A stretch of DNA of 24,000 bases from contig OY968796.1 in the NCBI GenBank assembly GCA_963695545.1, positions 3,140,753-3,164,752 on the forward strand, given 5' to 3'. The notes beneath the pieces are model-generated. The model saw only the letters and a program-made list of their open reading frames with translations. It was not told where the DNA came from and ran no database searches. Shown piece by piece: positions 1-18,501 of this stretch. The position numbers and the translations under genes were made by a program. The first letter of the stretch is position 1. Each line of letters starts with the position of its first letter. This DNA is from Terriglobia bacterium. Its GTDB lineage: Bacteria > Acidobacteriota > Terriglobia > Acidiferrales > UBA7541.

Positions 1-1237
1 GCAAGGCGTTCAGGCAAGAAGCCGAGCAAGTATGGGCGCTGAGCGGACACCAAAAAAGCGAAGCGATGAAGCCTCGGCCGGGGCGCATAGAACTTGTGCA
101 GCACATGGATAACGTCGAGATCAAGGTCGGGCAGGACACAGTCAAGCGGGAGTTCATGATCAAGGTCACGGCGTCAATGCCGGCACGGTCAAGCCCAAGG
201 CGCAGAAATGGCTATGGCAAAATCGTGTTCCCGCGGGTGCGATCACTTGGGGCGTCGGCAAGCCCGGCAACGCCAAGAGCCTGTGGGCAACCGACCTCGC
301 GGCGCGTGTATCTTCGGGCGCGGATTTTCCCGATGGCGCGAAGAACGAGGGGCGCGAAGAAGGTGCTGATGTACTGCGGTGAGGACGACTGGAGCGCACC
401 GTAGTGCCGAGGCTCATCGTCGGGGCTAACCTCGACAACATCACCCTGCTGGACAACCAATCGTTCGACGTGTTCGACAAAGAATACAACCGCGTTGACC
501 GACGCTCCATCGACCTGGCCAAGACTGCGACACGCTGAACCATCTGGTACACGACCACCCGGAGATCGCGCTGCTGATCCTCGATCCCACCACCGGGGTT
601 TACGGCAGTAGAAATACAAATCACGACAAGGACATGCGCCCGATCATGAACGATCTGCGCGATATGTGCGAGAAGCGCGGGCTGACCATCGTGGGGATCA
701 CGCATACCAACAAGCGGGGGAGGCGGCGGCGATAGACCAAATCCAAGGCGCGTCGAGCATCGCTGGAGCGGCCCGCGGCGCATGGCTCTTCACCCGCGAC
801 CCTGAATCCGACGATGAGCACGCGCATGTCATGTCGTGCATCAAGTCCAACCTCAGCGACAACCATGATGGGCTGAAGCTGTTGACCAAGGCTGTGAAGG
901 TCAATGATGAAGTGGGTGATCACCCGATGATCGTATGGGGCGAGAGCACCAAGATGCAGGCGGACGAGGCGAACCAAGCGTTGAAGGAGAAGCGCGAGAC
1001 CAAGGGCGGCAAGCGGACGCCTCCAAAATCGGCATCCTCGCGATGCTCGGCGAAAAGCCGATGCTGTCCAAGGACGTATACACCGCACTGGAAAAGCAGG
1101 GCTTCTCGGGCGAGACCGTGAAGCGGGCTGCCGCGGAACTGACCAAGGAGTTCCAAATCCATCGCAAGCAGCAAGGCGGTCGCTGGTACATGGTGTTGGC
1201 GGAGCACCTGTATGAGTTCGAGCAGAAACGAGGCTGA
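1..1237 (+). pseudogene. RecA-fold AAA_25/RepA-like replication ATPase (plasmid/phage/ICE type) with a C-terminal winged-helix tail. The 5' end lies outside the window and the gene is broken by at least 6 frameshifts.
   Basis: Protein-like sequence is continuous only when hopping frames. Segments in order: KAFRQEAEQVWAL...VEIKVGQDTVKREFMIKVTA (open from nt 3); KWLWQNRVPAGAITWGVGKPGNAKSLWATDLAARVSSGADFPDG (P-loop-like region, ~206-385); VLMYCGEDD; VVPRLIVGANLDNITLL; EIALLILDPTTGVYG...MRPIMNDLRDMCEKRGLTIVGITHTNK; AAAIDQIQGASSIAGAARGAWLFTRD...MIVWGEST; KIGILAMLGEKPMLSKDVYTALEKQGFSGETVKRAAAELTKEFQI. The stop is at 1235-1237. The family assignment is from remembered AAA_25 motifs. Confidence 0.7.
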
Positions 1238-1290
1238 GGCAAACCCGAGGCTGTGATGGCGTTATCGGCGACGGAGGCTCTGTGAGACCG

Positions 1291-1447
1291 TCAGAAGGTC
1301 ACATCTGTGTGTGTTACGTTCTGGCGTTCTGACCTTCTGAATATAATTTATATACTTTATGAAAGAAACAAAGGAGTTAGTGGTCAGAAAGCCAGAACGC
1401 CAGAAGGTCAGAAAGTCAGTGGTATCGGTCACGAGATGACCTTCTGA
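1291..1447. repeat. Iteron-like repeat cluster around an AT-rich core; candidate replication origin or operator
   Basis: TCAGAAGGTC occurs at 1291-1300 (+) and 1400-1409 (+, as cCAGAAGGTCa). GACCTTCTGA, its reverse complement, occurs at 1331-1340 and 1438-1447. Degenerate copies GGTCAGAAAG/GTCAGAAAGTCAG lie at 1382-1420. GTTCTGGCG (1318-1326) is mirrored by CGCCAGAAC (1392-1400). The core at 1341-1380 (ATATAATTTATATACTTTATGAAAGAAACA) is strongly AT-rich in an otherwise GC-rich window. Confidence 0.6.
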
Positions 1448-2168
1448 GGCTTGGGCGTTTGGCGATCACATCTCGCGTGCTCTCTCAAGCTTTTTGCGGC
1501 ACCACTCAGCACCAATTCCGCGACTTTCAAATCCATTTCGTGAAGCAGAGTTTTGGCAGTCCCGGCAGCATTGCTGATCTCGCCGATCACACGAAATTGC
1601 CATCGTTAATGGCAAATCGTGCTGATGCACCTTGTAACCAAGAACGTGGAGTCATGCCGAAAGCCGCTCAGAGCCGAGTCTACGGAGGAAATCTAAGAAA
1701 TGCGTGCAAGACCGCAGGTGAAAACATACCTGCTCATCACCAAGCTCCAGCGCTGGGCGCGTATCGGGGCGTATCCTAGCTGTTATCCCAACTGCTCGGC
1801 GTCAATCGCCCGCCGCAACTACGCACGGCTGTACGCACGACACGAATCGTTGGCCCGCAGCATAGGGCTTACCCCAATTTCGGCTTATCCTCCGCTTTGA
1901 TCCTGAGAGTCTTCGAACGATGGCATACCCACGCATGGACGAAATGGTCTGGATCGGCGGCGCTGGTGGTGGTTCCCCGGAAGGCAGATCACCGTGGAGT
2001 CGCACTTCGAGTGGAAAAACGGCAGGGCTTACCTGCTGGAACCCGATGGCACCGCCATCGAGGGAATTCTGTTTGTCGGCGAAGTCGCGTCCGATTGACG
2101 CGTCAACTCTGAGCGACCTTTCAGCGTCCGCAAGCCGAGATCAATCGTCCTCTTTTGCGTTGGCTCGA

Positions 2169-2174
2169 TATAAT
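2169..2174 (+). promoter_or_regulatory. Possible -10 box (TATAAT) for the 2196..2981 gene
   Basis: A perfect TATAAT lies 22 nt upstream of the ATG, followed by the purine-rich GGGAAAGGG as an RBS. No convincing -35 element was seen. Confidence 0.3.
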
Positions 2175-2195
2175 GGTGGTTGGGAAAGGGCAGGT

Positions 2196-2981
2196 ATGAA
2201 CTCGGAAAAGAAACGGATTGAGGCTTACATGCTTGCCGCCGCCCGCAAAGCAGGCGTGCCAATACCGACTGGCGAAACGCCCGACGAGGAACCAGATTTC
2301 AGGTTCAACGATGAAACTCCGGCATTGGGAATTGAGCTTTCCGAGGTGTTACGCCCTGCCAGTAGCAATCACGGGATTGTGCCCGTTGAGGAGGATTCCT
2401 TTCATAAGGACATCATCACGAAAGCCCAACTCCACTACTACGATGCGCCTGATGCCAAGCCTGCTCATATTAGCGTTTATTTCACGAACACTAGGGGTGG
2501 GAAACGCAACAAAGCGGGACTGGCTCGTGCTCTTGCTGGGTTTGTGAAGGCTAATGTTCATCGGGCGAATCCTTTTGTGAGTTTGTACCGACCCGAAACG
2601 CCGGATGGTTTCGATTCCATTGTCATCAGTGCTGAATCAAGAGATTGGTGGTGCGGAGAAGGCGGAGGTTACACGCTTGATGACATACGCCCTCAAGTTG
2701 CCGCCAGAATCAGCGACAAAGACAAACTGGTGCAGACTTACCGCGCCAACTTGCCAGAGGGCGCGAACGTTTGGCTGCTCCTTTACACTGGCGTCACCGT
2801 AGCTCGAAGCATGATGATTCCGCACGGAATAGAGACGTGGAAATTCCCGTTCCGGTTTGACAGAGTGTTTTGGTTTACCGCTTTAGAGGGACAATTTGCG
2901 GAGATTCAACGAGCAGAAGCCGCGAACGTAGCGGGGCTACCCATGCCCTCCCGCTCGTTTTCATCGACTATTGTGCCCTGA
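2196..2981 (+). CDS. Hypothetical protein (261 aa), intact; weak PD-(D/E)xK-like N-terminal motif
   Basis: This is the internal ATG of ORF 1920..2981, preceded by GGGAAAGGG and TATAAT. The upstream 92 codons are Ser/Gly/Pro-rich and not protein-like. The motif EEPDFRF...PALGIELSEV resembles the D...E-x-x acidic core of nuclease-fold proteins but lacks a clear Lys. No family was recognised. Confidence 0.55.
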   Translation: MNSEKKRIEAYMLAAARKAGVPIPTGETPDEEPDFRFNDETPALGIELSEVLRPASSNHGIVPVEEDSFHKDIITKAQLHYYDAPDAKPAHISVYFTNTRGGKRNKAGLARALAGFVKANVHRANPFVSLYRPETPDGFDSIVISAESRDWWCGEGGGYTLDDIRPQVAARISDKDKLVQTYRANLPEGANVWLLLYTGVTVARSMMIPHGIETWKFPFRFDRVFWFTALEGQFAEIQRAEAANVAGLPMPSRSFSSTIVP

Positions 2982-3309
2982 CTTTAATCCGCGCCTCCCG
3001 TGCCCAATTTGGTGTACGAGAACGTCAGCCCTGCCTGCCGGAACCTGCGTTGTGGTAGTTAGTAACCCCCAAGTGCCCTAAGTTTGTCCTACCGAAGGGC
3101 GGCTGACCTTTCACGTTTAGCATTAATAGCAGGAGACACCTTCTGCTACCCCAGAAACGCACCCCTGAGTGGCGGCGTCAGCATTTGCTGACCGCCGAGG
3201 ACTTCGCGAGGACGCTGTCGGACTCGGAGTTGTTGGAACGGTGCATGTGCCCGCAGGCGCGATCATGCCCGAGCAATTCTGTCCACTCGCGAAAATAAGA
3301 GGAAGAAAA

Positions 3310-4009
3310 ATGAAGAAATCTGACAAGCAACGCATCCGCGAAACGGCTCTGGCAATGGACAAGCCGTTCACCGTGCAGACCCTCAAGGGCCGTCTTGCCC
3401 GACCTTGTGTTCACATCGGCTGCGCCGAAAGGCAGGGAATGGCGTCGCGTGCTGGACGAGATGATGGCGGAAGGTGTTCTAGTCGTCCACAGTCAGGGTG
3501 CGAGCATCCCAGCGGGTGGAAATGAAAGCGACGACAAGCAGAGGCAGTATGTCGTCTCCACGGCGGCAACGGCACAGGCACGAGCCGAGACACCGACTGT
3601 ATTGGAATCTGTTCGGGCAGAGGTGGACGCAGGCGAGTATGAAGGGCTGTCGCTCAATGATGACGCGGTTGACCGAATCTACCACGGGCAGCGCAATGGC
3701 AAGGTACGCGCCGAGAAAGGCGACATCTGGGATATGGCAAGGCATGTGATCGCGACCCGCAGCGGTCGCAAATTGCCCGACATCCTGCCGGATGTGCTCT
3801 CTGTCCTGCGCAAGCGTCTGCCCGGCGATTCGTTCGTGGTCGCGGACTTGGCGCACGAGTTGCGCACTGGCGTAGACGGACGCCTCGGACGCACCTGCGA
3901 GAAGCTTTACAAGCAGGGCGTGCTCGACCGCAAGAGGGATGAGGGGGAGAGTGGACGTTGGCGTTACACAATTAAAGCCGACCTTTGGCAAAAGTCGGTG
4001 CTCGCTTAG
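3310..4009 (+). pseudogene. Double winged-helix (MarR/Rep-like wHTH) DNA-binding protein with one frameshift near 3390-3400
   Basis: ATG 3310 is preceded by AAGAGGAAG. MKKSDKQRIRETALAMDKPFTVQTLKGRL (frame of ORF 3169..3525) continues in the frame of ORF 3395..4009 as PDLVFTSAAPKGREWRRVLDEMMAEGVLVV. The C-terminal part FVVADLAHELR...CEKLYKQGVLDRKRDEGESGRWRYTI looks like a wHTH wing. Confidence 0.5.
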
Positions 4010-4056
4010 ATTTCCTGTTTTTCACGTTGCTCTCTTTAACCCACCCCCCAAGGAGT

Positions 4057-4725
4057 TCACCATTTTCTTACGCGTTCGCGATAACGCCGAATGACACGCT
4101 TGCTCACTTTGCCTTCGGCATCCTCGATTAGCTCTCGCATGGAATGTTGCGCTGCAAAGCATCCATAGATTGCGTGCCTGCCCGAACTCTCGTCGATAAT
4201 TCTGTGCAGTTGCTTAGCAGAGAACGGGCGAAACCCCAGCAGCCCCCGCGCTGCAATCGGGACTTCGGTCTTGAAATCGTTCGCTGCCAAGAACGCCTGA
4301 ATCGCACCATCGCGGGCGATGGCCCCGAATTCCTCATTCTTGCCCGATGCACGCAGCTACATCCCAAGCAGAGGCGTACGACGATTCTTCGTTCCATTTC
4401 AACGCTTGAATGTGGTCGATGAAGCCGTGAGGATTCTCATCGCGGTGGATTTTGACCGGAATTATCGCTTTTCCGAGGGCGAGTGCAAACCCGGTTTCTT
4501 GGTCTGTCCAGTCTGATTCAGAGAAGGCCTTGGTAAGCAGCGGGATGAAAATGTCGCACTCGCGCAGAGCCTTTCTAATCTCGGTGCGCCAGCCGGGCAG
4601 ACGGGACGGATGTCTTCGTGGGCCAGAAACGCGTCGAAGCCAAACTCTTCAAGACCCGCCTTCAGTCCTCCGGCGAGCTTTTTCGCCTTATGCGAGTAGC
4701 TTAGAAAAATGTTTAGAGGTTCCAT
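4057..4725 (-). pseudogene. TIR-domain protein with an unknown ~90-aa C-terminal domain; 2 frameshifts
   Basis: Translation of the reverse strand gives three segments. The first is MEPLNIFLSYSHKAKKLAGGLKAGLEEFGFDAFLAHEDIRP. After a frameshift near 4590-4605 comes WRTEIRKALRECDIFIPLLTKAFSESDWTDQETGFALALGKAIIPVKIH...ACIG. After a frameshift near 4340-4350 comes NEEFGAIARDGAIQAFLAANDFKTEVPIAARG...RRYRERVRKW*. IFLSYSH, CDIFIPLLT and S-x-W-x-x-Q-E are classic TIR_2 blocks. Confidence 0.75.
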
Positions 4726-4726
4726 G

Positions 4727-5314
4727 TCATTTCTCGGGCTCCGCAGGTAAGACCGCGTTCTGCGCCGAACGTACGGCTTTCACATAAATCACGCCATCTG
4801 CGCCGTTCGGTAATTTCCCTTGATAGGAGTGCGGAACCGTGACCAAGAACGCCTGACTACGAGGAGTTACAGCCGTCTTGTGACTGGCTTCAATGATCCT
4901 GAAAAGCCCCTCGCAGTATCCTCCGAGATGGTTGCAGTACGCTTCTAGTTTCATGTTCAGTTCCCGTTCCTGCACCGCCTTTTGTATCTCCACTTCGTCG
5001 AGCGGAGCACGTTGTTCAGGGGTCTTGGCATCCAACGGCGGAAAAACACGGGCAATGAATGCGTCAGTGGAACCGTCGTGCAGCGTGACAATCACCCCGG
5101 CAAACTGGTGGGACAAATTTCGATACTCCTGAATCTCGTTGACAGTCGGGTCGTCGTCGAGGGCCTTGACGAGTTCGTCGTGCCGCCCTTTCGTCACAAT
5201 ACCTTCCTGCTTGCACCGTCTGTATGCCGTGCACAGCAATTCAGCAAGATGGCGAAGCTGCCAGAGAACGCCTGCGAAATGCGCACGGAACACAGTCGCG
5301 TCCTCCTGAAGCAT
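4727..5314 (-). CDS. Unknown protein X (195 aa as an intact ORF), translationally coupled to the TIR gene; probably longer ancestrally, starting ~5595-5620 with a frameshift near 5315-5325
   Basis: Stop TGA 4727-4729 is 1 nt from the TIR ATG 4723-4725 (AAA TGA C ATG GAA). Protein-like sequence continues upstream in another frame (QDFDGMVAEVWHTLNVCLYHAAYVRVYADTGAM, ORF 5194..5595). No motif was recognised. Confidence 0.5.
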   Translation of the reverse strand: MLQEDATVFRAHFAGVLWQLRHLAELLCTAYRRCKQEGIVTKGRHDELVKALDDDPTVNEIQEYRNLSHQFAGVIVTLHDGSTDAFIARVFPPLDAKTPEQRAPLDEVEIQKAVQERELNMKLEAYCNHLGGYCEGLFRIIEASHKTAVTPRSQAFLVTVPHSYQGKLPNGADGVIYVKAVRSAQNAVLPAEPEK

Positions 5315-5616
5315 CTCACGTTAGCCTGCGAGAACGGTTGAGTCGCTGTGTGTGCGCGCTTGCTCCCAGCCAAGCACATCGCACCCGTGTCCGCATAAAC
5401 CCTCACGTACGCTGCGTGATAAAGGCAGACATTCAGCGTGTGCCAGACCTCGGCGACCATGCCGTCGAAGTCTTGATTGGGAGTGAACGTACCCTGTCCA
5501 TGTTTTGCGCTTCCTCGCCTCAAACAACGGCTCGAACGACGCTTTGGAATCACCTGCTCGCTCACAAAGGTGCTTCGAGCGGGGGCGTAAATCATCGCGG
5601 AGCGATTCGCCGGGCT

Positions 5617-7157
5617 TCAAGCTAATGGAGCGGAGGAGGAACGCCGTCGCAACTGGATCGAGATCGACAGCTTGAACGCGATCTTCAGTTGACTGCGCTC
5701 GTTCGGATACGGCAGCACTTCCCACTTGAGTGCGGCTCGTAGAATCCGTTTCGTCCGCCCGTCGCCATAAAATCCAACTGACGCTTTCCGGCTATCGTCC
5801 TTAAAGAAATCACAGCCTTCCGAGGTTAGCAGTTGTTTTTGTTGGGCACTACTACGCTGTACCTCAGTTTTCCGAAGCGGCGATCACGGGTCAGAAGATG
5901 AACGTTTCGGGCGTCGAAGACCCTGCCATCCGGCCGCCGGAATTTTTCCGTGGGGTTCGTGAAGCCGCAAAATGACCCATTCTAACGACTGGTAAACAAT
6001 TCCGAGTTCATTTCCCTTTGGATCGGCATAGGCGACGAAAATGTTGTACCCCCCCTTTCTCATCTCTCGGCTTGCAGGCTGATCAATAAGGTAGCCGCTG
6101 AACCCGTGTGGGTTCTACCATCCGTAGAACGCCTGATTGGGTCAGCCCAACGCAGAGTGCAGCCGCGTGTGAGCGGATTACCTTCTGTGCATGCTCGGAG
6201 CCGCAGACAGACGCCTTGACCTTCGTACCAGCCGTACTGCCAAAACAAACGCAGCCTGCAATGTATTGCCGAAGGACAAACCGTAAGCAAATTCGGAACT
6301 GCCGAGCGGACTCGCCAGCCATTCAAAGGCGACAACCAAATTGCGTGCCTCAGCAAGGGAAATCTCCTTGACGGTCGCGTTTTTGAAATCAGAGGCTAAT
6401 GCCATTTTTTCGGCAAGGAGCGGATCGGGTTGTTCTGCCATACGTTCGCGGTTCACGCGCTGGAAGGCTTTGCCATTTGCTGGATAATCCTCAAAGTCTT
6501 TGGAAATTTGTTTCTCGCACTCCCCAGCGTGCTTCGCCAAGTTCCTCAAAGCAAGAGTCAGCTTCTTGGTGATCGTCGGGCTGAGCCGACTGCGAAGCTG
6601 GGTTACTTTTTCCAGCTTCTCCCTACGGCTGGCCGATTCGAGGTCGCGAATCAACTCTGACGCAACGAGATTCACGTCCGGCTCCGAAATTACGCCAGTC
6701 GGCGTGACGATCTCTCTGATCTCGCGAAGCAAGCCGCTGTAGTCAGTTCTCCGTTTTTCTCTCGCGCCTGAACGAGAGCCTTTTCAAACGTAGCATCATC
6801 AACGAGGCGCGCGATTCTCTGCCACTTCGCGCTCTGATCCTTCGATATACCGATTTCCTCTAGTGTGGGCGGATTGGCGGTCGGTCTGCTCGACCGCCTT
6901 TTGACTCCATCCTTACGCGGTCGTCCTTCACCCCTTGTGCCGGGGTTCTTTTCCATTTCAAGCAAGAGTTGTCCTGTCCTGCGCTCGGCACGAATTCTTA
7001 TCTCCGCTGCCTGATTCTGGAGTTCAAAGTCGCCCGCCTGCTTGGCGTAAACGCGAACGGCTTCCGCTTTGTCACGGATCGCCTTCACCTCATCGACACG
7101 GTGGGCGGCGGCGAGCGCACGTCGGGCGGCGTCGTAACGAATGAGCGCGACAGTCAT
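5617..7157 (-). pseudogene. Fusion of a helical N-terminal domain (RYDAARRAL...ELTTAA type, common in phage/plasmid proteins) with a GNAT-fold Mom-like acyltransferase-like domain; at least 5 frameshifts
   Basis: Frame-hopping translation gives, in order: MTVALIRYDAARRALAAAHRVDEVKAIRDKAEAVRVYAKQAGDFELQNQAAEIRIRAERRTGQLLLEM...GISKDQSAKWQRIARL...GELTTAA; LLREIREIV...KEISLAEARNLVVAFEWLASPLGSSEFAYGLSFGNTLQAA; CFGSTAGTKVKASVCGSEHAQKVI; PLTRGCTLRWADP; NPHGFSGYLIDQPASREMRKGGYNIFVAYADPKGNELGIVYQS; NGSFCGFTNPTEKFRRPDGRVFDAR; then ...LKWEVLPYPNERSQ with stop at 5617-5619. The 'AYAD..G..G.IYQ' and 'RG....WA' blocks match my memory of Mom-family proteins. This was not verified by a search. Confidence 0.5.
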
Positions 7158-7160
7158 ATT

Positions 7161-7174
7161 CAGAGAATTCTCTG
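7161..7174. promoter_or_regulatory. Perfect 14-bp palindrome CAGAGAATTCTCTG in the divergent intergenic region
   Basis: It sits 4 nt upstream of ATG 7155-7157 of the minus-strand gene and 55 nt upstream of the SIR2 ATG (7229). It is a candidate operator for a dimeric regulator. Confidence 0.3.
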
Positions 7175-7228
7175 GCAGCAAAGGACAACGTCAAGCTACG
7201 AGAGCCGTGAAGTGGTATCTTTTTCGGC

Positions 7229-8265
7229 ATGACATCGGACAGGCGCACGGTTTTCGTAGTGGGAGCGGGTTTCTCCGCTGATCTTGAATACCCGCTTACT
7301 TCTCAACTGCTGCCCCGAGTCAGAAATCGTTTCGACAAAGCGTTTTCGACGCAGTTTGACGAGGTGGTCAGATTTCATCACCCCGGATGGGACAGGCGAC
7401 GGGCTACGCTTCCCGACATCGAACAACTGTTGACGGAATTGTCTGCAAACGAAGAGTTGCTGCCTGCGGTTCGTTCGGACTCCCGTTCGATAGCGTTACT
7501 CTCGAACGGTTTCGGGAGGAATTGCTGCGCCTCGTTGCCGTTTGGTTCCACGAAATCCATCAGAAACGCTCTTCGGCGGGCGACAGATCATTGGATCGCT
7601 TTCTGAAGCTTATAGGCGAATCAGAGAATCCAGTGGTGATCTCTTTCAACTGGGATTACGAGTTGGACGAAGCGTTGTTCGGCAAGAATGGCAAATCCCC
7701 AGACCTAACCCGCGAAAGTTACGGGCTAAACACGGGAAAGCTCGCGAGTCCCGCGTTGCTGAAACCACACGGATCACTGAATTGGTATCCCTCTCGTTCC
7801 GGCAAGCACATACAACGTGACTTGCGATTACGGCTGTGGAGATCATCTGGGTCGGAGCCGTCCATGTACTGTTTCATGCGATGGCGGGCGGTACGCTCGA
7901 CGCAGGGACGGCGATATGTACCGTGGATTGTTCCACCGACACACTGGAAACGATTCGACCATTCGATGATGAAACACATTTGGAAGCGGTGTGTGGATAC
8001 TCTGAGCACCGCTCGTCGAGTGTATTTTCTGGGTTACTCGCTGCCGCTTGCGGATTGGCATTCCAGATACATTTTTCGCTGTGGGTTCCATAATCAAATT
8101 GAAGGACTACCGCTGGCGGGTGGAGGGCGTGCGAAGCCAACCCGATTGGCAAAGGTCACGGTGGTGAACCCGGATAGCGTCGCCGTTCAGAGGATAGAAA
8201 CGACGTGTGGAGTGAAAGCCCGCTGGATCGACGACACGATCAGATCATGGCTACGATCCCGTTGA
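7229..8265 (+). pseudogene. SIR2_2-family (defence-type sirtuin-like NADase) protein, ~345 aa, with one frameshift near 7470-7480
   Basis: VFVVGAGFSADLEYPLTSQL gives the Rossmann NAD-binding start. After the frame switch (ELLPAVRS -> GLPFDSVTLERFREELL) come PVVISFNWDYELDEAL (N/D motif), LLKPHGSLNW (catalytic His motif) and RVYFLGYSLPLADWH. No second domain such as SLOG, HerA partner or TM segment is present. Confidence 0.75.
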
Positions 8266-8586
8266 TTGAGCGTATTTCGAGCACGATGTGTCATCGGTTT
8301 TTGCTTGTCCCTGCCCTGCGGCTGCGTCCGACCTCGATCTGCTCGCGTTTATTTAACCTATCTTCCAGCGTCACCGTAAGCTGCTGATGTCAAAGGGCGA
8401 ATTTCGCCGATTTTGACAGCCCAAATTTCATCCGTTAGATGAACATTACGGGAGCCGGGCGATGAAACCGTTTTCGGCTGAGAATAATCTTCATCTCTCT
8501 ACTGCTTCGCTCGCTGGAAACTGACCTGACCGGGGTTTTTTGTACCAGCGGGAGTGAGAGAGAATTCACTCTGGAGGGAAGCTGGT

Positions 8587-8865
8587 ATGCCGATGAGGAG
8601 ATACAAGCCGGAGCAGATCGTCACGCTGCTGCGGCAAGTTGAAGTTGAAATCGCCAACGGAAAGAGCACCCCACAAGCCTGCAAGGAAGCCGAGATCACC
8701 GCGCAGACCTACTACCGCTGGCGGAAGGAATACGGCGGCCTGAAGTTGGATCAAGCGAAACGCCTCAAAGAGTTGGAGCGGGAAAACGCCAAGCTGAAAC
8801 GGTTGGTGGCGGAGCTTTCGTTGGAGAAGCAAATTCTGAAGGATGTGGCAGAGGGAAACTTCTAA
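8587..8865 (+). CDS. IS3-family transposase OrfA (HTH + leucine zipper)
   Basis: MPMRRYKPEQIVTLLRQVEVEIANGKSTPQACKEAEITAQTYYRWRKEYGGLKLDQAKRLKELERENAKLKRLVAELSLEKQILKDV. The RBS GGAGGGAAG lies upstream of ATG 8587. Confidence 0.9.
   Translation: MPMRRYKPEQIVTLLRQVEVEIANGKSTPQACKEAEITAQTYYRWRKEYGGLKLDQAKRLKELERENAKLKRLVAELSLEKQILKDVAEGNF
8853..8859 (+). other. Candidate programmed -1 ribosomal frameshift heptamer G GGA AAC
   Basis: In the orfA zero frame the codons are GAG GGA AAC TTC TAA, which fits the X XXY YYZ pattern. After a -1 slip the reading is GKLLSPERRRSAVEHARESYQVSERHACRLLGQ, joining orfB without a stop. The orfB frame is open well upstream of 8853. Confidence 0.6.
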
Positions 8866-8888
8866 GCCCTGAGCGGCGACGTAGCGCG

Positions 8889-9731
8889 GTGGAGCATGCA
8901 CGCGAGAGCTACCAAGTATCAGAGCGGCATGCCTGCCGGTTGCTGGGGCAGTGGAGAGGGACACAACGCTACGAGGTGATCCACCGAACGGATGAAGACG
9001 CGCTGACGCGAGACATCGTGGCGCTGGCCAGCGAGTACGGGCGCTTCGGCTATCGGAGGATCACGGCGCTGTTGCAAGCACGGGGCTGGTATGTGGGCAA
9101 GGATCGGGTGCAGCGGATCTGGCGGCGCGAAGGGCTGAAAGTGCCGCAGGGACAAAGGCCGCGAGGAAGGCTGTGGTTGAACGACGGATCGTGTGTTCGT
9201 CTCCGGCCGGAACGAGCCAACCATGTGTGGAGCTACGATTTCGTGAGCGCGATGACCCACGACGGCCGAACACTGCGAATGCTGACGCTGATCGACGAAT
9301 ACACGCGGGAGTGCCTGGCGATCCGCGTGGCGAGAAGGCTGGGGAGATACGAAGTGATCGAAGCGCTGGCGGACGTGATGCTTTACCGGGGAATTCCGGA
9401 ACATATTCGCTCGGACAACGGCCCGGAGTTCGTGGCCAAGGAGCTGAGGAGTTGGCTGGCGAAGGTGGGAACGGGGACGCTGTACATCGAACCGGGAAGC
9501 CCTTGGGAGAATGGCTACTGCGAAAGCTTCAACGGGAAATTGCGCGATGAATGTTTGAACGGAGAGATTTTTTACTCGCTGAAGGAAGCGCAGATCGTGA
9601 TCGAGAAATGGCGGATGGTGTACAACACGCTGCGTCCGCACTCAGCGCTGGGCTACAGGCCACCGGCGCCGGTGGCCTGTAGCCCCTTGGTGCCGCCAAT
9701 TCTCGGTTCGCCGTCGACGGCTGTGATGTAG
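8889..9731 (+). CDS. IS3-family transposase OrfB (rve/DDE integrase core), normally made as an OrfAB fusion
   Basis: HVWSYDFV...LTLIDEYTRECLAI...IRSDNGPEFVAKELRSWL...IEPGSPWENGYCESFNGKLRDECL...YNTLRPHSALGYRPPAP. The track start at 8889 is GTG. The true N-terminus probably comes from frameshifting at 8853-8859. Confidence 0.9.
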   Translation: MEHARESYQVSERHACRLLGQWRGTQRYEVIHRTDEDALTRDIVALASEYGRFGYRRITALLQARGWYVGKDRVQRIWRREGLKVPQGQRPRGRLWLNDGSCVRLRPERANHVWSYDFVSAMTHDGRTLRMLTLIDEYTRECLAIRVARRLGRYEVIEALADVMLYRGIPEHIRSDNGPEFVAKELRSWLAKVGTGTLYIEPGSPWENGYCESFNGKLRDECLNGEIFYSLKEAQIVIEKWRMVYNTLRPHSALGYRPPAPVACSPLVPPILGSPSTAVM

Positions 9732-9771
9732 ACTCTCTCATTCACCGTGGTACAAAAACTCGGGCTGGTCA

Positions 9772-11584
9772 AGAGCCACGGCGGGTTGCCGATGATGAAG
9801 TCGAATTGTTGCTTCAGCATCGCGGGTCTGTAGCTGTTGCGGATGATGAACGACCAGATGGTGTTCTTCTCCTGTCGGATCAAGTCCGCCAACTTTTCGG
9901 TGAAAGACCAAAGCGCGTCAACAATCGCTGCATGCTCAAGCAGTTTGTACAATTCGGGAACATTGACCGTCAGATACTTGTTTAGTGTCGTTCTGCTTTC
10001 CTTCTTCGATTTTGCGTGCGCCTCGGCGACCGTCGCGCAGGCGGCAATCGCGTCGTCAAAAAGCTCCGGTGAGTGGATAAGCCAGTCCGGCATCGCGACC
10101 GTCTTTTCATTCTTCTCGCCGAACTGAATTTCGAAACCGCTCAACTTCTCGTACAGATTCTGCTCGACTTCGCGCGGAAGGAACAGCGAGTCCGCCAGAT
10201 ACACGGGGATGTTGACGGGCTTGCGTGCGGCGTTCACGAGCTTGCCGAGCGCGAGAACGTATGTGGCGCGGGAGATAGTAACCGCGACGGGGTGGATGTC
10301 GATGCCCTGAACCTTGCCGAGTATCATTCGCAGCTTGTCGTTGTCAGTGCCATCGGGATTGTGGTTCAGGAAGTGGTGGATCGTGGCACGCAGGAAGCTG
10401 CCCGAGCCGCAGCTTGGATCGAGCACCGCTTTGTAGCCGTGCTTCGGTAAAAGCTCGTCCACGATGCGTTCGCACAGCCAGTCGGGCGTGTAATACTCGC
10501 CAAGGTCGTGACGATCCTTGGGGTCGATCAACTGCTGGTAGACGCCCTTGAGCACGTCCTCCTTGATGTGAGACAGGTCATAGTCCGCGAGGTGTGAGAG
10601 GATGCGCTCCCACATCGGGGCGAGAATCTTCTCGGCTTCCACGCTGCGAATCCAGTGAAAGAAGTCATCATCCACGAGGTTCGCGAGCCGCTTGGACTCG
10701 AAGTAGCGACCCGAGAGCACATCCTTCGCGACCTGCCTCAGGTTCGCGGTGCTCTTGCCCTGCGACAGGGCAGCCCAAATCAGCAGCCGGGCGATGCTCG
10801 CGAGATAGGTGTGCCGCAGGAACAGGTTCTCAAGCTCGGAGATTTCCTGCGCGGTCTCTATGTCCCGCACCGCCGTGGTGTCCTCGGTCAGGCGACCGTA
10901 GGTGACGGTGAGGTACCGCTGCCACGTCTCGAACGCGAGCTTGGCTTCCGATCCGCCGCTGACCTTTGCCCACGCACGCTTGAGCGCAGCCATGCCCTCG
11001 TGGAACTGGAAGCTCTGGCTGCCGAACTCAAGCTGGAACTGCTCGGCGGTCGCCTCTACCTGCTGCTCACGAAACAGCAAACTCGTGAGCCACAGCCAAA
11101 ACTCGCCCAGCGTCTCATCTGCCAGCTTGAAGTCGCTTAGTTCGTCCAGCACGACGTTCTCAGGCGTCGGCTCCTTCCCCTCGGGAAGCACGGGGCGGTA
11201 GCGAATCCAACGGCTGCCGTCCGTCGCTATCGCCAGCAGTGGACGCAGCGCGTTTCTCTTTTCCTTCTGCCAAGTCCCGGCGACGTACTCGCAAAGCTGA
11301 CCCTTCGCCTCTTCGAGCGTGGCGGACAGAGACTTCTCAAACTCGATGATGGCGTTGCCGTAGTAGGCGTCGGCGCGTCCTCTCTTCTGTCCCACCGCTT
11401 GGTCGATGCGGATCAGTTTCTCGACCCCACGGGAGAACTCGGAGACGGCGTTCGTGCCGGGGAAAAGCTCTGCGATTACGGCGGCGAAGCGCGACCGCTT
11501 GGCGGCTTCGTTGGGGAGTGTCTTGACCTCGCGGGCGTAGGCCCGCAACGTCTCCTTGACCTTTGGCTCAAGCGTCTCAGGCAT
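9772..11584 (-). pseudogene. Gamma-class N6-adenine DNA methyltransferase of a single-chain RM type (N-terminal nuclease-like motif + helical spacer + MTase), 3'-truncated by the IS3 insertion right after motif IV
   Basis: MTase motifs are GEYYTPDWLCERIV, VLDPSCGSGSFL (motif I), VQGIDIHPVAV and FIIGNPPW (motif IV). The N-terminal GRADAYYGNAIIEFEKSL resembles the D...E-x-(E)K nuclease motif of MmeI-like type IIG/IIL enzymes. The last 39 aa of the 657-aa ORF (LTSPSFCTTVNERVY...) are read-through into IRR. The likely start is ATG 11582-11584 (MPETLEPKV), with 11626 as an alternative. Confidence 0.8.
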
Positions 11585-11669
11585 TGGCGTGAATGATAGC
11601 AGCGAGGGCAAAGAAAAGGGGTGCATCTTGCGATGCTCTTACGGCATCAGCAACTTTTCTTGTTCCGCT

Positions 11670-13140
11670 TTAGCTGGAGGCGAGTCGAAGTTTTTCTAAC
11701 AGCTTTAGAAGAGCTAGCGTATCCAGAGCACAATAGTCGAGCAGAGCTTTCTGAATTCTCTCGCGCTCGCCGCCATCAAAGCAGCCGCGCAAGAGCGCCT
11801 CCCACGCCAGTCCGGCTTCCTGCCCGTTCGCAACCGTCATCCCGTCGTAGCTCATCTCAGGCACGAGAGCGGGCAGCACGGACTTGAGGCTGTACGATCC
11901 GGCGAACGCGGGGTGGTAAACATGTGCCCGCACGATGGGCAGTAGATCGAACAGGCGGTCTTGGATTGTTTTGATCTGATCCGCGAACCGAGGAAACCAA
12001 GTCGCGAGTTCCGAAAGACGCTTAGATTCGAACGACGAATACACGACGATGCTGCCGCTTTCGCCGAGTGCAGCGCAGAGGGAGCTAATGAACTCGCGCC
12101 GAGGATCGCTGCTACCTGCGGCAAGAAACTCGTAGTGCTCTGGCTCTGCGCCCGCTTGTCGCTGCACATGGACTGACCATTGAAAGGGCAGGTGGTCGTA
12201 GGGTCGCATTCCCGCGAACGGCGGAATCGCCCGATTCAGAGTCTCGAAATCGGCGAAGTACAACGGGTAGGTCAACCCGTCCAACAGATCGCGGAGTCCA
12301 TCGCTGAACCACGGTCGTCCCGTCTGCACGCACGTCGCAGCACGGCGTTGAATGTCGCTCAACTGGAAATCGTGAGGGATGTCCCGAATTGACTCGACGC
12401 CAATCTCCTCAAGCGCATCGACCGCGCTGGCGTGGATGCGCGGCAAAAATCCGATGTGATCCTGCGAGCGCGGCGGGTTGCAGTGATCGAAAAATTCGCA
12501 AGTGACGGGGGCGGTACAGTGCGCACCAATTTTGATGTTGGGAGGAGTCGGCTGCTCCAGAATCCGAAATTCCGACCGTAGCTGCAACGTCAGCTTGTGC
12601 TGCAACCCCTCGACTCGCCGGGCCACATTGCGGATGCGAAAGAATTCTCGCGGGTCGATTTCACCGCCCGGATAAACATAGTTTCGGTTGATGTGAGCCA
12701 GAGATGCCGAAGCCATGTCCAGCCCTGACCGCGAAACCACGCGATACTGGATCGCTACGTCTTCGAGGTGGTGATCCTTGAGATCGGTCGTTGACTTGAC
12801 TTCAATCAATTTCCAGCGACCGTCGAGCCGTCGCTGTAGGACGTCCACTTTCACGAGCACGTTCTTGTGCTCAAACACCCCCTCGAAAATCGCTGGCACG
12901 TCCGGGTTTGCCACCAGTTCGCGAGTTGCGCGGATCGCTTTGTCCAGCCTGCCGTCACTCGGAACCTCGACCCCGCCCGGAAAAAGCTGCCGGGCAAGCA
13001 AGACCGACCTGCCGCCCCTGTTCGATGATGGCTTGATCAGCAGCGTCCGGCGCGACTGCCAGTTCTGGTTCGTGGACGAGCAGATACAAACGTTTGGCGC
13101 ACTGGCGGCCAGCAATAACTTTTGTTTTGCTGATTCTCAT
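11670..13140 (-). pseudogene. DUF2779-family protein (N-terminal Cas4-like PD-(D/E)xK nuclease with a Cys cluster + C-terminal DEDD-like exonuclease fold); one frameshift near 13010-13030
   Basis: MRISKTKVIAGRQCAKRLYLL...IIEQGRQVG (ORF 12955..13146) continues in another frame as LARQLFPGGVEV. Further motifs are VKVDVLQRRLDGRWKLIEVKSTT (D...E-V-K), AHCTAPVTCEFFDHC (Cys cluster), YPLYFADFETLNRAIPPFAGMRPYDHLPFQWSVH and GSYSLKSVLPALVP. Confidence 0.8.
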
Positions 13141-13173
13141 GTTCAAGGCTTCGAGCAGCGGCGTCGGACTGAA

Positions 13174-13515
13174 TTATGCATCCGCCCGATACGGCTTCCT
13201 ATCGTCGATCAGATGAAGCTTGTACTTGTGAAATTGCGCGATGCTTGCCGGGGAACGGTCGCGCCCGCAGAAGATGTCCTTGAGTCGCGAGTCCGCGCAA
13301 GCGAGCCGCTCAAGAGCACGCCACCACAGGATACCGGGTCGCCCGGAGTCGGTCGCACCGTCCGGGCGCGAGTGGAGGAGCCGGAACTCCCTTTCGGAAT
13401 TGACAAAGTCCCTGACGGCGTTCTCCACTTCCTCCGGGCTGGGGTTGACGAACTTGACCTCGATCTCTCCATCCGGCTTGACGCTCGTCTCGATGATTTC
13501 GTCGAACATCTCCAC
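13174..13515 (-). CDS. Small hypothetical protein P2 (113 aa), N-terminal paralogue of P1
   Basis: GTG 13515 or ATG 13509 is preceded by GAGGAGGAG. The N-terminus FDEIIETSVKPDGEIEVKFV matches LDEQIETKIAPDGTVTVRLI of the upstream gene. The rest is unique. Confidence 0.5.
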   Translation of the reverse strand: MEMFDEIIETSVKPDGEIEVKFVNPSPEEVENAVRDFVNSEREFRLLHSRPDGATDSGRPGILWWRALERLACADSRLKDIFCGRDRSPASIAQFHKYKLHLIDDRKPYRADA

Positions 13516-13541
13516 GTCACTCCTCCTCGCAGCGTCGCCCG

Positions 13542-13871
13542 CTAAGCCTGCGCCTTGACCCTGTGCATATAGAGCAGGAGCGAGCGGAACCGTTCGTATG
13601 CTTCCGCCCGCATCTCCTTATCAGCCCACCCCTCGAAGAACATCTGCTTGAGTTTCCCCTCGGCGGCAACCGACCTGTCCTTCGCTGTCTCGTCCGCGTA
13701 TGTGCACGAGAAGTACTCGTTGGCGGCGAACTCGACCATGGTCTGCGCGAGGTCGATGTCGCGGATCATCTGCTCGTCGCCGATCAGCCTCACGGTTACC
13801 GTGCCGTCAGGGGCAATCTTCGTCTCGATCTGCTCGTCGAGCGTCGTCGCGACCTGCTTGTCGTCCGCCAT
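13542..13871 (-). CDS. Small hypothetical protein P1 (109 aa)
   Basis: ATG 13869-13871 is preceded by GGGAGAAAGAGAAGAG. It is an acidic protein with no recognised family. A 26-nt gap separates it from P2. Confidence 0.55.
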   Translation of the reverse strand: MADDKQVATTLDEQIETKIAPDGTVTVRLIGDEQMIRDIDLAQTMVEFAANEYFSCTYADETAKDRSVAAEGKLKQMFFEGWADKEMRAEAYERFRSLLLYMHRVKAQA

Positions 13872-13913
13872 CTCTTCTCTTTCTCCCTATCGAATTGAGG
13901 TTCCGCTTCCTTC

Positions 13914-14451
13914 CTATACGGTGGCGTACATGTTCCGGCGAATCCAGCGGCTCAGCAGCACCAGCAGCACCGGGGCAAATACGAAGAACGGAGCGATGGC
14001 GAACACCAACGCCGCACTCTCGGGGTTGAGACTGCTGAGGCGTTCGGGAAACACCTTACCGAGTCCAATCGCGAAAATAACTTCGGCGGCGACGGAGCCG
14101 ATGAAACCGCTGACCATGAACCAAATCGACTTGGCGAGCGTCTGCCACATACCGCCGTGGTCTTGACGCCAAGTGCTCAGCTTTCCCGCTCGCTGCCACT
14201 GCCGGACGCTGTGCCAATGGCAGATGAAGACCATCCAGATCGCGCAGGCAAGCGGTCCCGGTAAGGAAGTAGAGCACGCCCCAAATCCGCATATCGGCAC
14301 CGCTCAACGCGAGAGCCTCGATGCCGACTGTAAAAAGAAGAGGAGCCGATAGTCCAAACATGAGCAGGGTGAGTAGGAACAGGATTTCCGACAGCACCCA
14401 TTTCAGGAATTCGCGGGCTGTTCCGGCGATGTCGATAACCATTGGCTCCAT
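13914..14451 (-). pseudogene. Four-TM membrane protein, unknown family; one frameshift near 14240-14265
   Basis: MEPMVIDIAGTAREFLKWVLSEILFLLTLLMFGLSAPLLFTVGIEALALSGADMRIWGVLYFLT switches frame to GPLACAIWMVFICHWHSV...IWFMVSGFIGSVAAEVIFAIGL...AALVFAIAPFFVFAPVLLVLLSRWIRR. Four hydrophobic spans are visible. Confidence 0.5.
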
Positions 14452-14505
14452 GGACGTTTCCTCCGGTACGAGACCCCTTCGCGATAGTTCTGGCGTCGGA
14501 AGATG

Positions 14506-15144
14506 TCAGGCGCATGCAGCCGTAGCGTGCTGAGAACGGGCAGCGGCGTACACAGTCCCAACTGACAGATTCATTTCGTTGGCTATCCACCGCCACGAAT
14601 GCCCGGAGGCTCGCAGTGAGTTGATCCGGTCAACATCGACAGCTTTTCTCGGTCGCCCGAGGCGTTTGCCCTTCGCCCTAGCATTTCGCAATCCTGCCCG
14701 CACGCGCTCAACTATCGTCTCTCGCTCGCTTTCCGCTACCGCTGCGAGAACGTGAAAGACAAATTTGCCTGATGGAATCGTCGTATCAATTTGCTCGATC
14801 ATTGCCACAAAATTGATCTTCAGCGCGTGAAAGGTCTCAAGTGCTCGGCACAGGTGTGAAACTGAGCGCGAAAAACGGTCGAACCGCCAGACGACGACCA
14901 CGTCGAATCTCCGCGCATGAGCATCCGCCATCAAGCGATTCAGTTCGGGTCGGGAATCCTTCCTGCCCGAGACGCCCTCGTCCACATAGCAGTCAAAAAT
15001 ATCCCAGCCCCGTCGCTGACAGTACTCGCGCAGTTCTCGTGTCTGCATCGCCGAGTCTTGCCCGTGACCTATCGTCGAAACCCGAGAATACACGGCAGCT
15101 TTGATCTTTTGCGGGCCGCAATCGCGAACAACCTGCAATCCCAT
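14506..15144 (-). CDS. Small serine recombinase (resolvase/invertase family) with a C-terminal HTH; intact
   Basis: AAVYSRVSTIGHGQDSAMQTRELREY (catalytic Ser block), VDEGVSGRKDSRPELNRLM, VVVWRFDRFSRS, GKFVFHVLAAVAESERETIVERVRAGL, GRPRK, and C-terminal SGHSWRWIANEMNLSVGTVY. Confidence 0.9.
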   Translation of the reverse strand: MGLQVVRDCGPQKIKAAVYSRVSTIGHGQDSAMQTRELREYCQRRGWDIFDCYVDEGVSGRKDSRPELNRLMADAHARRFDVVVVWRFDRFSRSVSHLCRALETFHALKINFVAMIEQIDTTIPSGKFVFHVLAAVAESERETIVERVRAGLRNARAKGKRLGRPRKAVDVDRINSLRASGHSWRWIANEMNLSVGTVYAAARSQHATAACA

Positions 15145-16441: not shown

Positions 16442-17260
16442 TCAGGCTTTCTTCGCCTTCCCGGGAGGAACGAGCGCGACCGAGGCCTCGGTGGTGAGCA
16501 GCAGGAATGTGAACGTCTCCTGCAGATACAGGCGCACAGCGGTGTCGGTGTGGCTGAGATAGCCGATCGAGACGTCCTGTCCGATGTGCAGGTCGAAATC
16601 TCCGCCGCGCGTGGTCAGCACGAAAGCGCCGCTGATCGCGGGCGCCCAGATGATGGCATCCTTCACGAGCCGCTTAACATGCTCGAGTACGGGATATCCG
16701 TGGTCGCTGGTTTCGGCGAGCGCCGTGTACGCGTCCGCGCCGAGCAACACCGAGTACGGGCCATTGACGCCCACCAGACGAAGTTGGCTCAGGCCTTGCG
16801 CAATCGCGTCCGGGTATTCCAGTACGTTTGCGGGGAGCGTCATGATCGGATTGCTGGTGCCTTGACGAATGCCGCCGATACCCGCGGCGGTGTAGCGATC
16901 GAAAATCGCGCAGTCTTCGGCGAAGGCGATTTTCTGCGCGGCGTCCTTCGCGGGTTGCCAATTCGCGTCGTTCGCGCCGCGCTCAACATCGTCAACGTCT
17001 TTGCGCTCCAGCTCGAAGGGAACACGCAGCTCGACCAGCGCCTTAACCTCGCGTTGTCTTGCAAGGACGCCGTCCGCTGGTGGCGTGATCGTCTTCAGGT
17101 GGCCCGTGCCCACGCCGGAGAGACCTGTGCCCGCCGCGGGGTGCACGTCGACGACGCGGCGACCGGCGATGTAACGCTTGAACGTGCGCGAAGTTTCCTC
17201 TTCGATTTGCGCCCACGCGGGGTCGGAAATGGGAGCGAGTTCGCGATGCAGGTTATTCAT
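16442..17260 (-). CDS. Family 1 encapsulin nanocompartment shell protein (HK97 fold, linocin M18-like), 272 aa
   Basis: MNNLHRELAPISDPAWAQIEEETSRTFKRYIAGRRVVDV...GPYSVLLGADAYTAL...ISGAFVLTTRGGDFDLHIGQDVSIGYLSH. The track ORF's N-terminal 35 aa overlap the DyP gene and are rejected. Confidence 0.92.
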   Translation of the reverse strand: MNNLHRELAPISDPAWAQIEEETSRTFKRYIAGRRVVDVHPAAGTGLSGVGTGHLKTITPPADGVLARQREVKALVELRVPFELERKDVDDVERGANDANWQPAKDAAQKIAFAEDCAIFDRYTAAGIGGIRQGTSNPIMTLPANVLEYPDAIAQGLSQLRLVGVNGPYSVLLGADAYTALAETSDHGYPVLEHVKRLVKDAIIWAPAISGAFVLTTRGGDFDLHIGQDVSIGYLSHTDTAVRLYLQETFTFLLLTTEASVALVPPGKAKKA

Positions 17261-18347: not shown

Positions 18348-18501
18348 CGGATCTCATCCTGGCGGAGCGCGCGGAATTCCGATCCGCGAAACACCGCGCC
18401 TGCCACACGCGCTGAGGTCAAGCGCCGAAGCTTAGCATCGTCGGCGGACGAACGTCCAGACTGCCGGCGAATCGACTCAAGCAACGCAAGGCGCAGCGAG
18501 G

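Follow-up and report, generated by a model that had tools for sequence, protein, structure and literature searches.

We describe here a compact gene pair in a 24,000-nucleotide (nt) stretch of an Acidobacteriota genome (Terriglobia bacterium, assembly GCA_963695545.1, contig OY968796.1, positions 3,140,753 to 3,164,752; hereafter the window, with positions counted from its first letter), in which a gene coding for a TIR domain and a helical C-terminal domain (TIR+C) directly follows a gene, X, that matches no described family. With or without a third gene, Y, between them, the two form a small horizontally mobile cassette, X-(Y)-TIR, found only in soil Acidobacteriota, and this cassette with its fold-novel orphan partner is real and undescribed in the databases searched. 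A preliminary description of the window, made from the sequence alone, had proposed a module of three genes, the first of which (gene A) codes for a protein with a Mom-type acyltransferase-like domain; gene A is instead an independent, widespread gene that neighbours the cassette and is not a conserved member of it. The reading that we favour, to which we give a probability of about one half, holds that A is independent, that X and TIR+C make up a mobile Thoeris-like cassette, and that the frameshifts found in all three genes of the window are most probably assembly errors.

The three genes are co-oriented on the minus strand between 4057 and 7157, as had been described and as six-frame translation of 4050–7200 agrees, each being split into pieces in different frames. 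The TIR+C gene (4057–4725, ATG at 4723–4725) codes for 221 amino acids (aa) after frame repair, with the TIR domain in aa 1 to ~113 (about 4385–4725, a TIR_2 match) and the helical C-domain in aa ~115–221 (4057–4383, no family match). Gene X (4727–5501) codes for ~257 aa after repair and ends in a TGA at 4727–4729, 1 nt from the ATG of TIR+C, a spacing given in the preliminary description and verified in the sequence. For the start of X the same description had taken ATG 5595, 21 nt from the end of gene A; the homologues of X, however, begin with MDRxSSFPxQDF, which aligns to the ATG at 5499–5501, and a Shine-Dalgarno-like GAGGAAG precedes this codon. Since X starts at 5501, the gap between A and X amounts to 115 nt (5502–5616), neither 21 nt nor an overlap, and there is thus no tight coupling of the two. 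The tight coupling that had been claimed for all three genes stands for X and TIR+C only.

The search for X covered a protein collection, JGI metagenomes and one genome for each species; with contexts added by exact protein look-up, it yielded 72 loci (cited below by L numbers). First of all, X immediately precedes TIR+C, with the same orientation, in the window and also in L079, L080, L035, L001, L012, L039, L031 and L032, and a TIR+C protein of ~90% identity is encoded next to X in L001/13, L012/28, L031, L032, L035 and L038/39 and, as found later, in L079 and L080/81. Second, the pair is contained in a single homology block of 80–92% DNA identity, which begins ~30–50 nt upstream of X, so that the final ~30 nt of the A–X spacer belong to it, and ends at or just past the TIR stop; the homology of the window to other X loci stops at 5524–5531. 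With sharp common ends, this block is found in at least five unrelated flanks: the island common to L079 and the window; in L080, a type IV secretion element bearing HNH, DUF499 and DUF1156 genes; in L039, a SIR2_2 gene together with Fic and poly-γ-glutamate-hydrolase-like ones; in L012, PIN-like genes; and in L001, housekeeping genes. Third, the genes are closely packed: in the X-TIR form the spacer is 1–5 nt or the genes overlap (window, L079, L035, L080), and in the X-Y-TIR form only a few nt separate X from Y and Y from TIR (L012, L039). Y, a 166-aa membrane protein with an N-terminal hydrophobic helix, is inserted exactly between X and TIR (7758–8258 in both L012 and L039, 8862–9269 in L001); it is lacking from the window cassette, and a third form consists of X and a truncated Y without TIR (L026, L027, L041). 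Finally, when the window is compared with L079, X and TIR+C have ratios of nonsynonymous to synonymous divergence (dN/dS) of 0.23 and 0.14, respectively, X being the more variable of the two across loci (75–86% protein identity, against ~90%). The two genes are inherited together in one compact unit, and both are under purifying selection. The coupling first noticed in one genome, of a TIR protein with an intact glutamate context to a gene of no recognizable family, is therefore a recurrent one, often located on mobile or defence-rich DNA, and in a PADLOC search the pair matches no described system.

X also keeps company with TIR proteins of other kinds, namely one of 312 aa, convergent with X and 20–23 nt away (L018, L047, L046), and one of 212 aa, divergent from it (L022). 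A census of 56 distinct X contexts, comprising 439 kb of flank and 513 open reading frames (ORFs) of at least 80 aa, located TIR ORFs at nine loci, representing three TIR architectures; all of them lie within 600 nt of X, and there is none among the ~396 remoter ORFs. A quite different account of the same data is that A, X and TIR+C are independent cargo genes, the adjacency of X and TIR being one ancestral juxtaposition that was spread by descent and recombination and the other neighbourings being due to the clustering of defence genes. We consider this account rather unlikely, and several observations nevertheless weigh on its side and against the reading that we favour. The same cassette accounts for six of the nine TIR-positive loci, which leaves about three independent events and a rough p of (117/513)^3, about 0.01 and not 1e-6. 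The neighbours of X are highly variable, and, where the flanks are adequate, around two thirds of the X loci lack a TIR within 7 kb; the neighbours at such TIR-less loci include a PNP_UDP_1 gene of the PDC-M60C-like kind with DUF7713, Mrr with an uncharacterized gene, and DUF6602. Relatives of TIR+C (37–66% identity) occur without X in L073, where AAA_15-like and PIN genes accompany it in a restriction-modification (R-M) island, in L075, with a 159-aa ORF and adjoining an RHS gene, and in L077, alone, and the X–TIR partnership is thus not obligate. Furthermore, the convergent TIR genes of L018 and L047 are not co-transcribed with X, one X clade keeps synteny with a secreted repeat protein, which suggests a plain accessory chromosomal gene, and no defence-family model matches X or Y. 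Independent cargo does not, on the other hand, account well for a spacing that resembles translational coupling in all same-strand copies, for a block that keeps its sharp ends in at least five different flanks, for three TIR architectures directly beside X with none elsewhere in the 439 kb, or for the purifying selection on X.

X forms an orphan family. It comprises 94 homologues (protein clusters), none with a Pfam domain over X, and all the named ones are from Acidobacteriota, the named carriers being the soil Acidobacteriota 'Ca. Acidiferrales/Acidoferrum'. A profile search of 1.84 billion representative proteins retrieved 57 at E ≤ 1e-3, with just a handful of full-length distant relatives. 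That X carries no recognizable motif, as had been stated from the sequence, was borne out in Pfam, NCBIfam, PHROGs and PADLOC, where X, its distant relatives (including the 574-aa P0151) and Y gave nothing at E ≤ 0.1. The structure search that had been recommended for X was made with a confident AlphaFold2 (AF2) model (pLDDT 86.9, pTM 0.83), which consists of three long helices and a small four-stranded sheet; Foldseek found no relative below E 0.1 in PDB or BFVD, and a PDB profile search was also empty. X was absent from IMG/VR when searched for there, and PLSDB held no protein match for X or A and no DNA match for the 3.1-kb region. Even the distant relatives keep five invariant histidines, a pair of arginines (those of 'RAH' and 'YRNxxH') and a pair of glutamates, which hints at an enzyme or ligand site. 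A HEPN identity was considered and rejected, the conserved 'YRNxxH' giving Rx3H against the canonical Rx4–6H and a HEPN fold match being absent. Two fusion-like proteins, P0094 (an X fragment with HD_4) and P0090 (with Sel1), cover 31% and 54% of the X query, and we provisionally take them as read-through or chimeric ORFs and not as clues to function. In L004 (6527–9228), a 390-aa PNP_UDP_1 protein (PADLOC PDC-M60C 2e-19; 'Effector PN-superfamily' 1.6e-12) is encoded upstream of X and DUF7713 downstream; to judge from this locus, X may pair with other nucleotide-processing defence-type genes too.

The TIR+C family, with 47 matches, is by contrast recognizable in its first half. The repaired window protein scores 62.7 bits on TIR_2 (6.2e-17, cut-off 28) and 24.2 bits on Pfam TIR (cut-off 21.3), and the intact copy in L079, P0095, reaches 72.4 bits on TIR_2 (5.9e-20). 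The motifs 'NIFLSYSH' and 'SESDWTDQETG' are present in the window TIR, and 'SxWTDQETG', including the glutamate of W-T-D-Q-E, is invariant in 35 of 35 family members, in agreement with the TIR assignment that had been made on the IFLSYSH strand and the S-D-W-T-D-Q-E context. Because this putative catalytic-glutamate context is kept, the TIR protein most likely cleaves or cyclises NAD+. The AF2 model of TIR+C (pLDDT 91.1) shows the flavodoxin-like TIR fold and matches the TIR-APAZ protein of SPARTA, the TIR domains of SARM1 and MyD88, and EcThsB in the PDB with a Foldseek probability of 1.00; the alignments span ~100–170 columns, about the length of the TIR part, and those to SPARTA, SARM1 and EcThsB have E values of about 1e-4. 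The ~90 aa past the TIR domain, in which no motif had been recognized, are better described as a helical C-domain of ~105 aa, which has no Pfam, NCBIfam, PHROG or PADLOC family and appears unmatched in the top Foldseek alignments. Bare TIR domains occur in IMG/VR.

Gene A (5617–7157, minus strand) codes for ~513 aa after repair, from an ATG at 7155–7157 to a TGA at 5617–5619, and the C-terminus 'FAASAPLA' just before this stop, common to L079 and the intact homologues, supports the end that had been assigned to it. An N-terminal helical domain (aa 1 to ~145, about 6720–7157) matches phrog_33995 (1.8e-11), and a C-terminal Mom-family GNAT-like domain (aa ~260–500, about 5617–6380) matches phrog_1384, 'Mom-like DNA modification protein', at 3.8e-9 over the last ~240 aa of the frame-repaired protein. 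The frame-damaged window sequence scores 19.5 bits on Pfam Mom (PF25680), below the cut-off of 27.1, and an intact homologue, P0203, 77% identical to repaired A, passes with 52.1 bits; the Mom-type acyltransferase-like domain of the preliminary description was thus correctly identified. The family is well conserved and about six times larger than that of X, with at least 543 homologues of ~513 aa, and PF25680 is precomputed on all 120 homologues listed. Phage Mom-like DNA modification proteins align to aa 259–497 of A, and in IMG/VR, where the N-domain is common on its own in viral contigs, no other part of A occurs. The enzyme Mu Mom has a GNAT fold and takes glycine from Gly-tRNA to attach it at N6 of adenine in double-stranded DNA (PMC13219725, PMC7261163), and from this mechanism and its own membership of the Mom family, gene A probably modifies DNA adenines for restriction evasion, as Mu Mom does.

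Whether gene A nevertheless belongs with X and TIR+C, in one three-gene system for immunity or linked to DNA modification, is decided largely by its distribution. The genes are co-oriented in the window and in L079, and the signals around them would allow read-through transcription: a sigma-70-like promoter match (TTGACG-16-GAGAAT, 9/12) lies on the minus strand at 7167–7194, just upstream of the ATG of A, and a terminator-like hairpin, with a 9-bp stem and a T-rich tail, lies on the same strand at 3978–3998, ~60 nt past the TIR stop, where the transcription unit probably ends. Both are consensus matches only, and in the A–X spacer the same kind of scan found no terminator-like or promoter-like site. 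The conserved block, however, begins only ~30 nt upstream of X, the A–X spacer is long, and tblastn with three pieces of A detected it in none of the 72 X loci; it is likewise missing from L080/L081 and from the TIR+C loci L073, L075 and L077; L079, the direct counterpart of the window, is the only other X locus that carries it. Homologues of A have other neighbours, and in the one A-family context that was fetched (the P0212 loci) A stands alone among protein kinase, Abi_C and SRAP genes, with neither X nor TIR. A three-gene system is therefore highly improbable. Among the loci examined, the triad co-occurs in the window and L079 alone, so that the conserved A/X/TIR order expected of such a module is not seen in other genomes, and the X–TIR pair does co-occur elsewhere. 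Co-orientation and tight spacing in a single genome had made a common Mom-type gene seem part of the module, and a comparison with at least 70 related loci removed it.

The preliminary description had further considered the module apparently inactivated, given that all three genes need frame repair. They are indeed all frameshifted in the window: compared with all its homologues, X lacks a single nucleotide at each of two places (near 5475 and 5323), and TIR+C has three 1-nt insertions (4343, 4592, 4602). A comparison can be made with L079, a 19.6-kb contig of an ENA metagenome assembly whose alignment to 1–14735 of the window has 94.9% identity and 90 indels; 74 of these are of 1 nt, and most are outside long homopolymers; X (254 aa) and TIR+C (221 aa, P0095) are intact there, X differing by 12 nt in frame at 4798–4814. 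Damage of the same type occurs in L079 in different genes, those for the IS3 transposase, the type IIG protein and the DUF2779 protein, which are open in the window. When a search was allowed only to keep or drop the columns in which the window and L079 differ by an indel, gene A was restored in both sequences with 18 indel sites, nine per side, and X and TIR+C were restored as well; zero nonsense codons remained in A, X and TIR+C, and dN/dS of A was 0.18. In near-identical stretches, indels roughly equal or exceed substitutions, the two numbering 9 and 9 in the type IIG gene, 2 and 1 in IS3, 3 and 1 in the SIR2-like gene, and 12 and 18 in window 6001–7500. The frameshifts are unlike those of neutral decay, since there are nine in A and yet the first 300 codons differ in one amino acid between the window and L079, and since nonsense codons are absent. 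On this evidence the frameshifts in A, X and TIR+C are very probably an assembly artefact, resembling consensus errors of long-read metagenome assemblies, the three genes are likely intact in the organism, and the supposed inactivation is in all likelihood mistaken. The naming as 'contig_N' and a source contig of 4.16 Mb are consistent with a long-read metagenome assembly, the platform itself being inferred.

That the frameshifts are real, with A, X, TIR+C and the SIR2-like gene as pseudogenes in a decaying island, is unlikely, though the distribution of the damage speaks for it. The window frameshifts are clustered in 1–2000 and 4300–7500, with about 15 in 4057–7157 and none in IS3 and the type IIG gene; of the genes checked at 14.5–24 kb, those that are Pfam-complete (resolvase, encapsulin, DyP peroxidase, luciferase-like monooxygenase) have no evident frameshift. 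Uniform sequencing error would not give this pattern, and as an artefact it calls for something local, for instance poor coverage or a mixture of strains across the variable island. The SIR2-like gene is broken at the same site (~7481) in both assemblies, and the truncation of the type IIG gene by IS3, a state common to L079, is genuine island decay. Decay of A, X and TIR+C would, however, need an indel rate well above the substitution rate; 1-nt events predominate, the sister contig has similar damage in different genes, nonsense codons are absent, and dN/dS values are 0.14–0.23. More generally, 'pseudogenes' in contigs from long-read metagenomes call for comparison with a sister sequence ahead of any biological interpretation.

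The surrounding locus, in the genome of a member of the Acidobacteriota ('Ca. Acidiferrales'), is a mobile island rich in defence genes. Its defence and mobile genes in the window include a type IIG R-M gene, IS3, a gene for a RecB-like DUF2779 protein, a SIR2-like gene and a resolvase; other X loci are comparable, L080 carrying type IV secretion genes and L010 carrying type ISP R-M, Mrr and ArdC genes. The IS3-family element (8537–9758) has 26-nt inverted repeats at 8537–8562 and 9733–9758 and two frames, orfA (HTH_Tnp_1, 8554–8865) and orfB (rve, 8889–9731). The type IIG gene, a 657-aa ORF at 9653–11626, abuts IS3 at its 3' end, its last residues reading into the insertion sequence, and matches positions 14–616 of a 1100-position PADLOC model; it is thus truncated after the NPPW motif. 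Adjoining it on the minus strand (11670–13115) is the gene for the 481-aa DUF2779/RecB-like (TM0106 family) protein, which has a weak Cas4-like match; a PDDEXK/RNase_H_2 protein similar to it is encoded near the TIR+C gene of L073. A serine recombinase (resolvase) at 14506–15144 (minus strand) may mark the right edge of the island, and past ~16 kb (16442–19554, minus strand) stand intact chromosomal genes for encapsulin (Linocin_M18), DyP peroxidase and a luciferase-like monooxygenase. At the left end, 1–1236 (plus strand) is the 3' part of an AAA_25 gene, 489 aa in L079, whose window copy has many 1-nt deletions relative to L079. The window has no tRNA gene, and a search for attachment sites found no meaningful repeats on either side of the module.

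Divergence between the window and L079 is mosaic, near zero in 2200–4000 and 6000–13500 and 10–20% in 1–2200, in 4500–6000 (X and the 3' end of A) and beyond 13500. Two plus-strand ORFs lie downstream of the cassette, one of 353 aa at 1920–2981, with a weak phrog_35865 match only, and one at 3395–4009, whose 204 aa in the window compare with 279 aa in L079; over 2200–4000 both are nearly 100% identical to L079 and almost free of indels. Synonymous divergence (dS) is 0.53 for X, 0.08 for TIR+C and ~0.004 for the SIR2-like, IS3 and type IIG genes. Given this mosaic and the high dS of X relative to its neighbours, the X region has been exchanged by recombination and its neighbours left as they were, which implies that the X allele was replaced inside an otherwise conserved island.

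The SIR2-like gene (7229–8265, plus strand, ~345 aa, divergent from A; SIR2_2 0.006, PADLOC SIR2 2.7e-4), with its frameshift near 7481, raises a further explanation, in which the TIR protein and SIR2 form a Thoeris-type pair, a TIR signal activating the SIR2 NADase, and X is an accessory. The gene is two genes distant in both L079 and the window, and in L039 a 356-aa SIR2_2/AbiH-like protein (9193–10263, minus strand; SIR2_2 9.9e-8, PADLOC SIR2 4e-13) is encoded convergently to TIR, ~270 nt from its stop, so that there may be a recurrent TIR–SIR2 neighbourhood without a SLOG domain. The two SIR2-like proteins, however, share only 25% identity over 157 aa, Pfam detects no SLOG or other recognised signal-binding domain in either, and PADLOC gives generic SIR2 models and not ThsA; no SIR2-like gene was seen near the cassette in L012 or L080, and the association concerns only two of about five evaluable contexts. 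We therefore regard a TIR–SIR2 pair as improbable.

For the mobile X-TIR cassette that we favour, the likeliest working model resembles Thoeris. Infection would trigger the TIR protein, which would consume NAD+ or make an ADPR-derived signal; the helical C-domain could serve as its sensor or oligomeriser; and X, with Y where present, would be the responding effector or a regulator of TIR. In its full form, in which X is a new kind of TIR partner, either an effector responding to a nucleotide signal that the TIR makes or a sensor or regulator gating the NADase activity of the TIR, and the whole is an undescribed Thoeris-like anti-phage cassette moving between conjugative elements and islands, the proposal is a tentative one that we would not put forward as the probable outcome. 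If the X-TIR pair does work in this way, it would add a structurally new partner protein to TIR-based immunity, it would come from soil Acidobacteriota, a phylum barely represented in experimental defence work, and, as a compact two-gene unit of ~1.45 kb, it would be easy to test.

We finally compare these proteins with the systems that they resemble. Like Mu Mom, the A family passes the Pfam Mom cut-off in its C-terminal ~240 aa, and the best PDB sequence match of A is Mu Mom itself (8bv8), though a marginal one (E 0.18). Unlike Mu Mom, which has 232 aa, A has ~513 aa, with a ~145-aa helical N-domain and a middle region of ~115 aa; the profile alignment to 8bv8 spans Mom residues 135–203, and the catalytic or essential residues R111 and S124 of Mu Mom (PMC13219725) fall outside the aligned stretch. 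The TIR+C protein finds its best structural matches in the SPARTA TIR-APAZ protein and SARM1 (E 8.6e-5 to 1e-3, query TM about 0.45–0.52), and it has a conserved glutamate context, the candidate counterpart of the catalytic one in these NAD+-degrading TIRs; it differs in having no APAZ, Argonaute, ARM or SAM partner and in having its own ~105-aa helical C-domain.

The closest comparison is with Thoeris, in which a ThsB TIR protein is combined with a variable effector and of which types I–XI and about 29 putative configurations have been described (Yirmiya et al., bioRxiv 2025, 10.64898/2025.12.03.692087). There are clear differences. The TIR protein scores far below the family cut-offs (ThcB4 43 bits against 220, Pfam ThsB_TIR 16.2 against 21.2), X has no match among the effector families tested (SLOG, Macro, caspase-like, DUF2270, DUF6650 and those of PADLOC), and X often occurs without any TIR. 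Pfam, NCBIfam and PADLOC reveal no recognised signal-binding domain in X or Y, next to the TIR gene, and the SIR2-like neighbour is a SIR2_2 protein without SLOG. By these sequence comparisons X-TIR is not a member of any Thoeris type tested. Among the likenesses, a partial and weak one is in the TIR protein itself (PADLOC ThsB 4.9e-8, NCBIfam ThcB4 2e-11, with EcThsB among the fold matches). As in Thoeris, the gene for a short TIR protein (~220 aa) forms a compact operon with that for a non-TIR partner, the DNA around the cassette is mobile or rich in defence genes, and one TIR family occurs with different partners and one partner, X, with different TIRs. The preliminary description had held that no TIR pairing of this sort was known; this is right in that no PADLOC system matches and overstated in view of the 29 putative TIR-plus-effector configurations of the 2025 preprint, several of which have effectors of unknown function and in which one TIR cluster can pair with different effectors (10.64898/2025.12.03.692087). 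A TIR protein with an uncharacterized partner, such as the one encoded by the X-(Y)-TIR cassette, is thus now an expected pattern.

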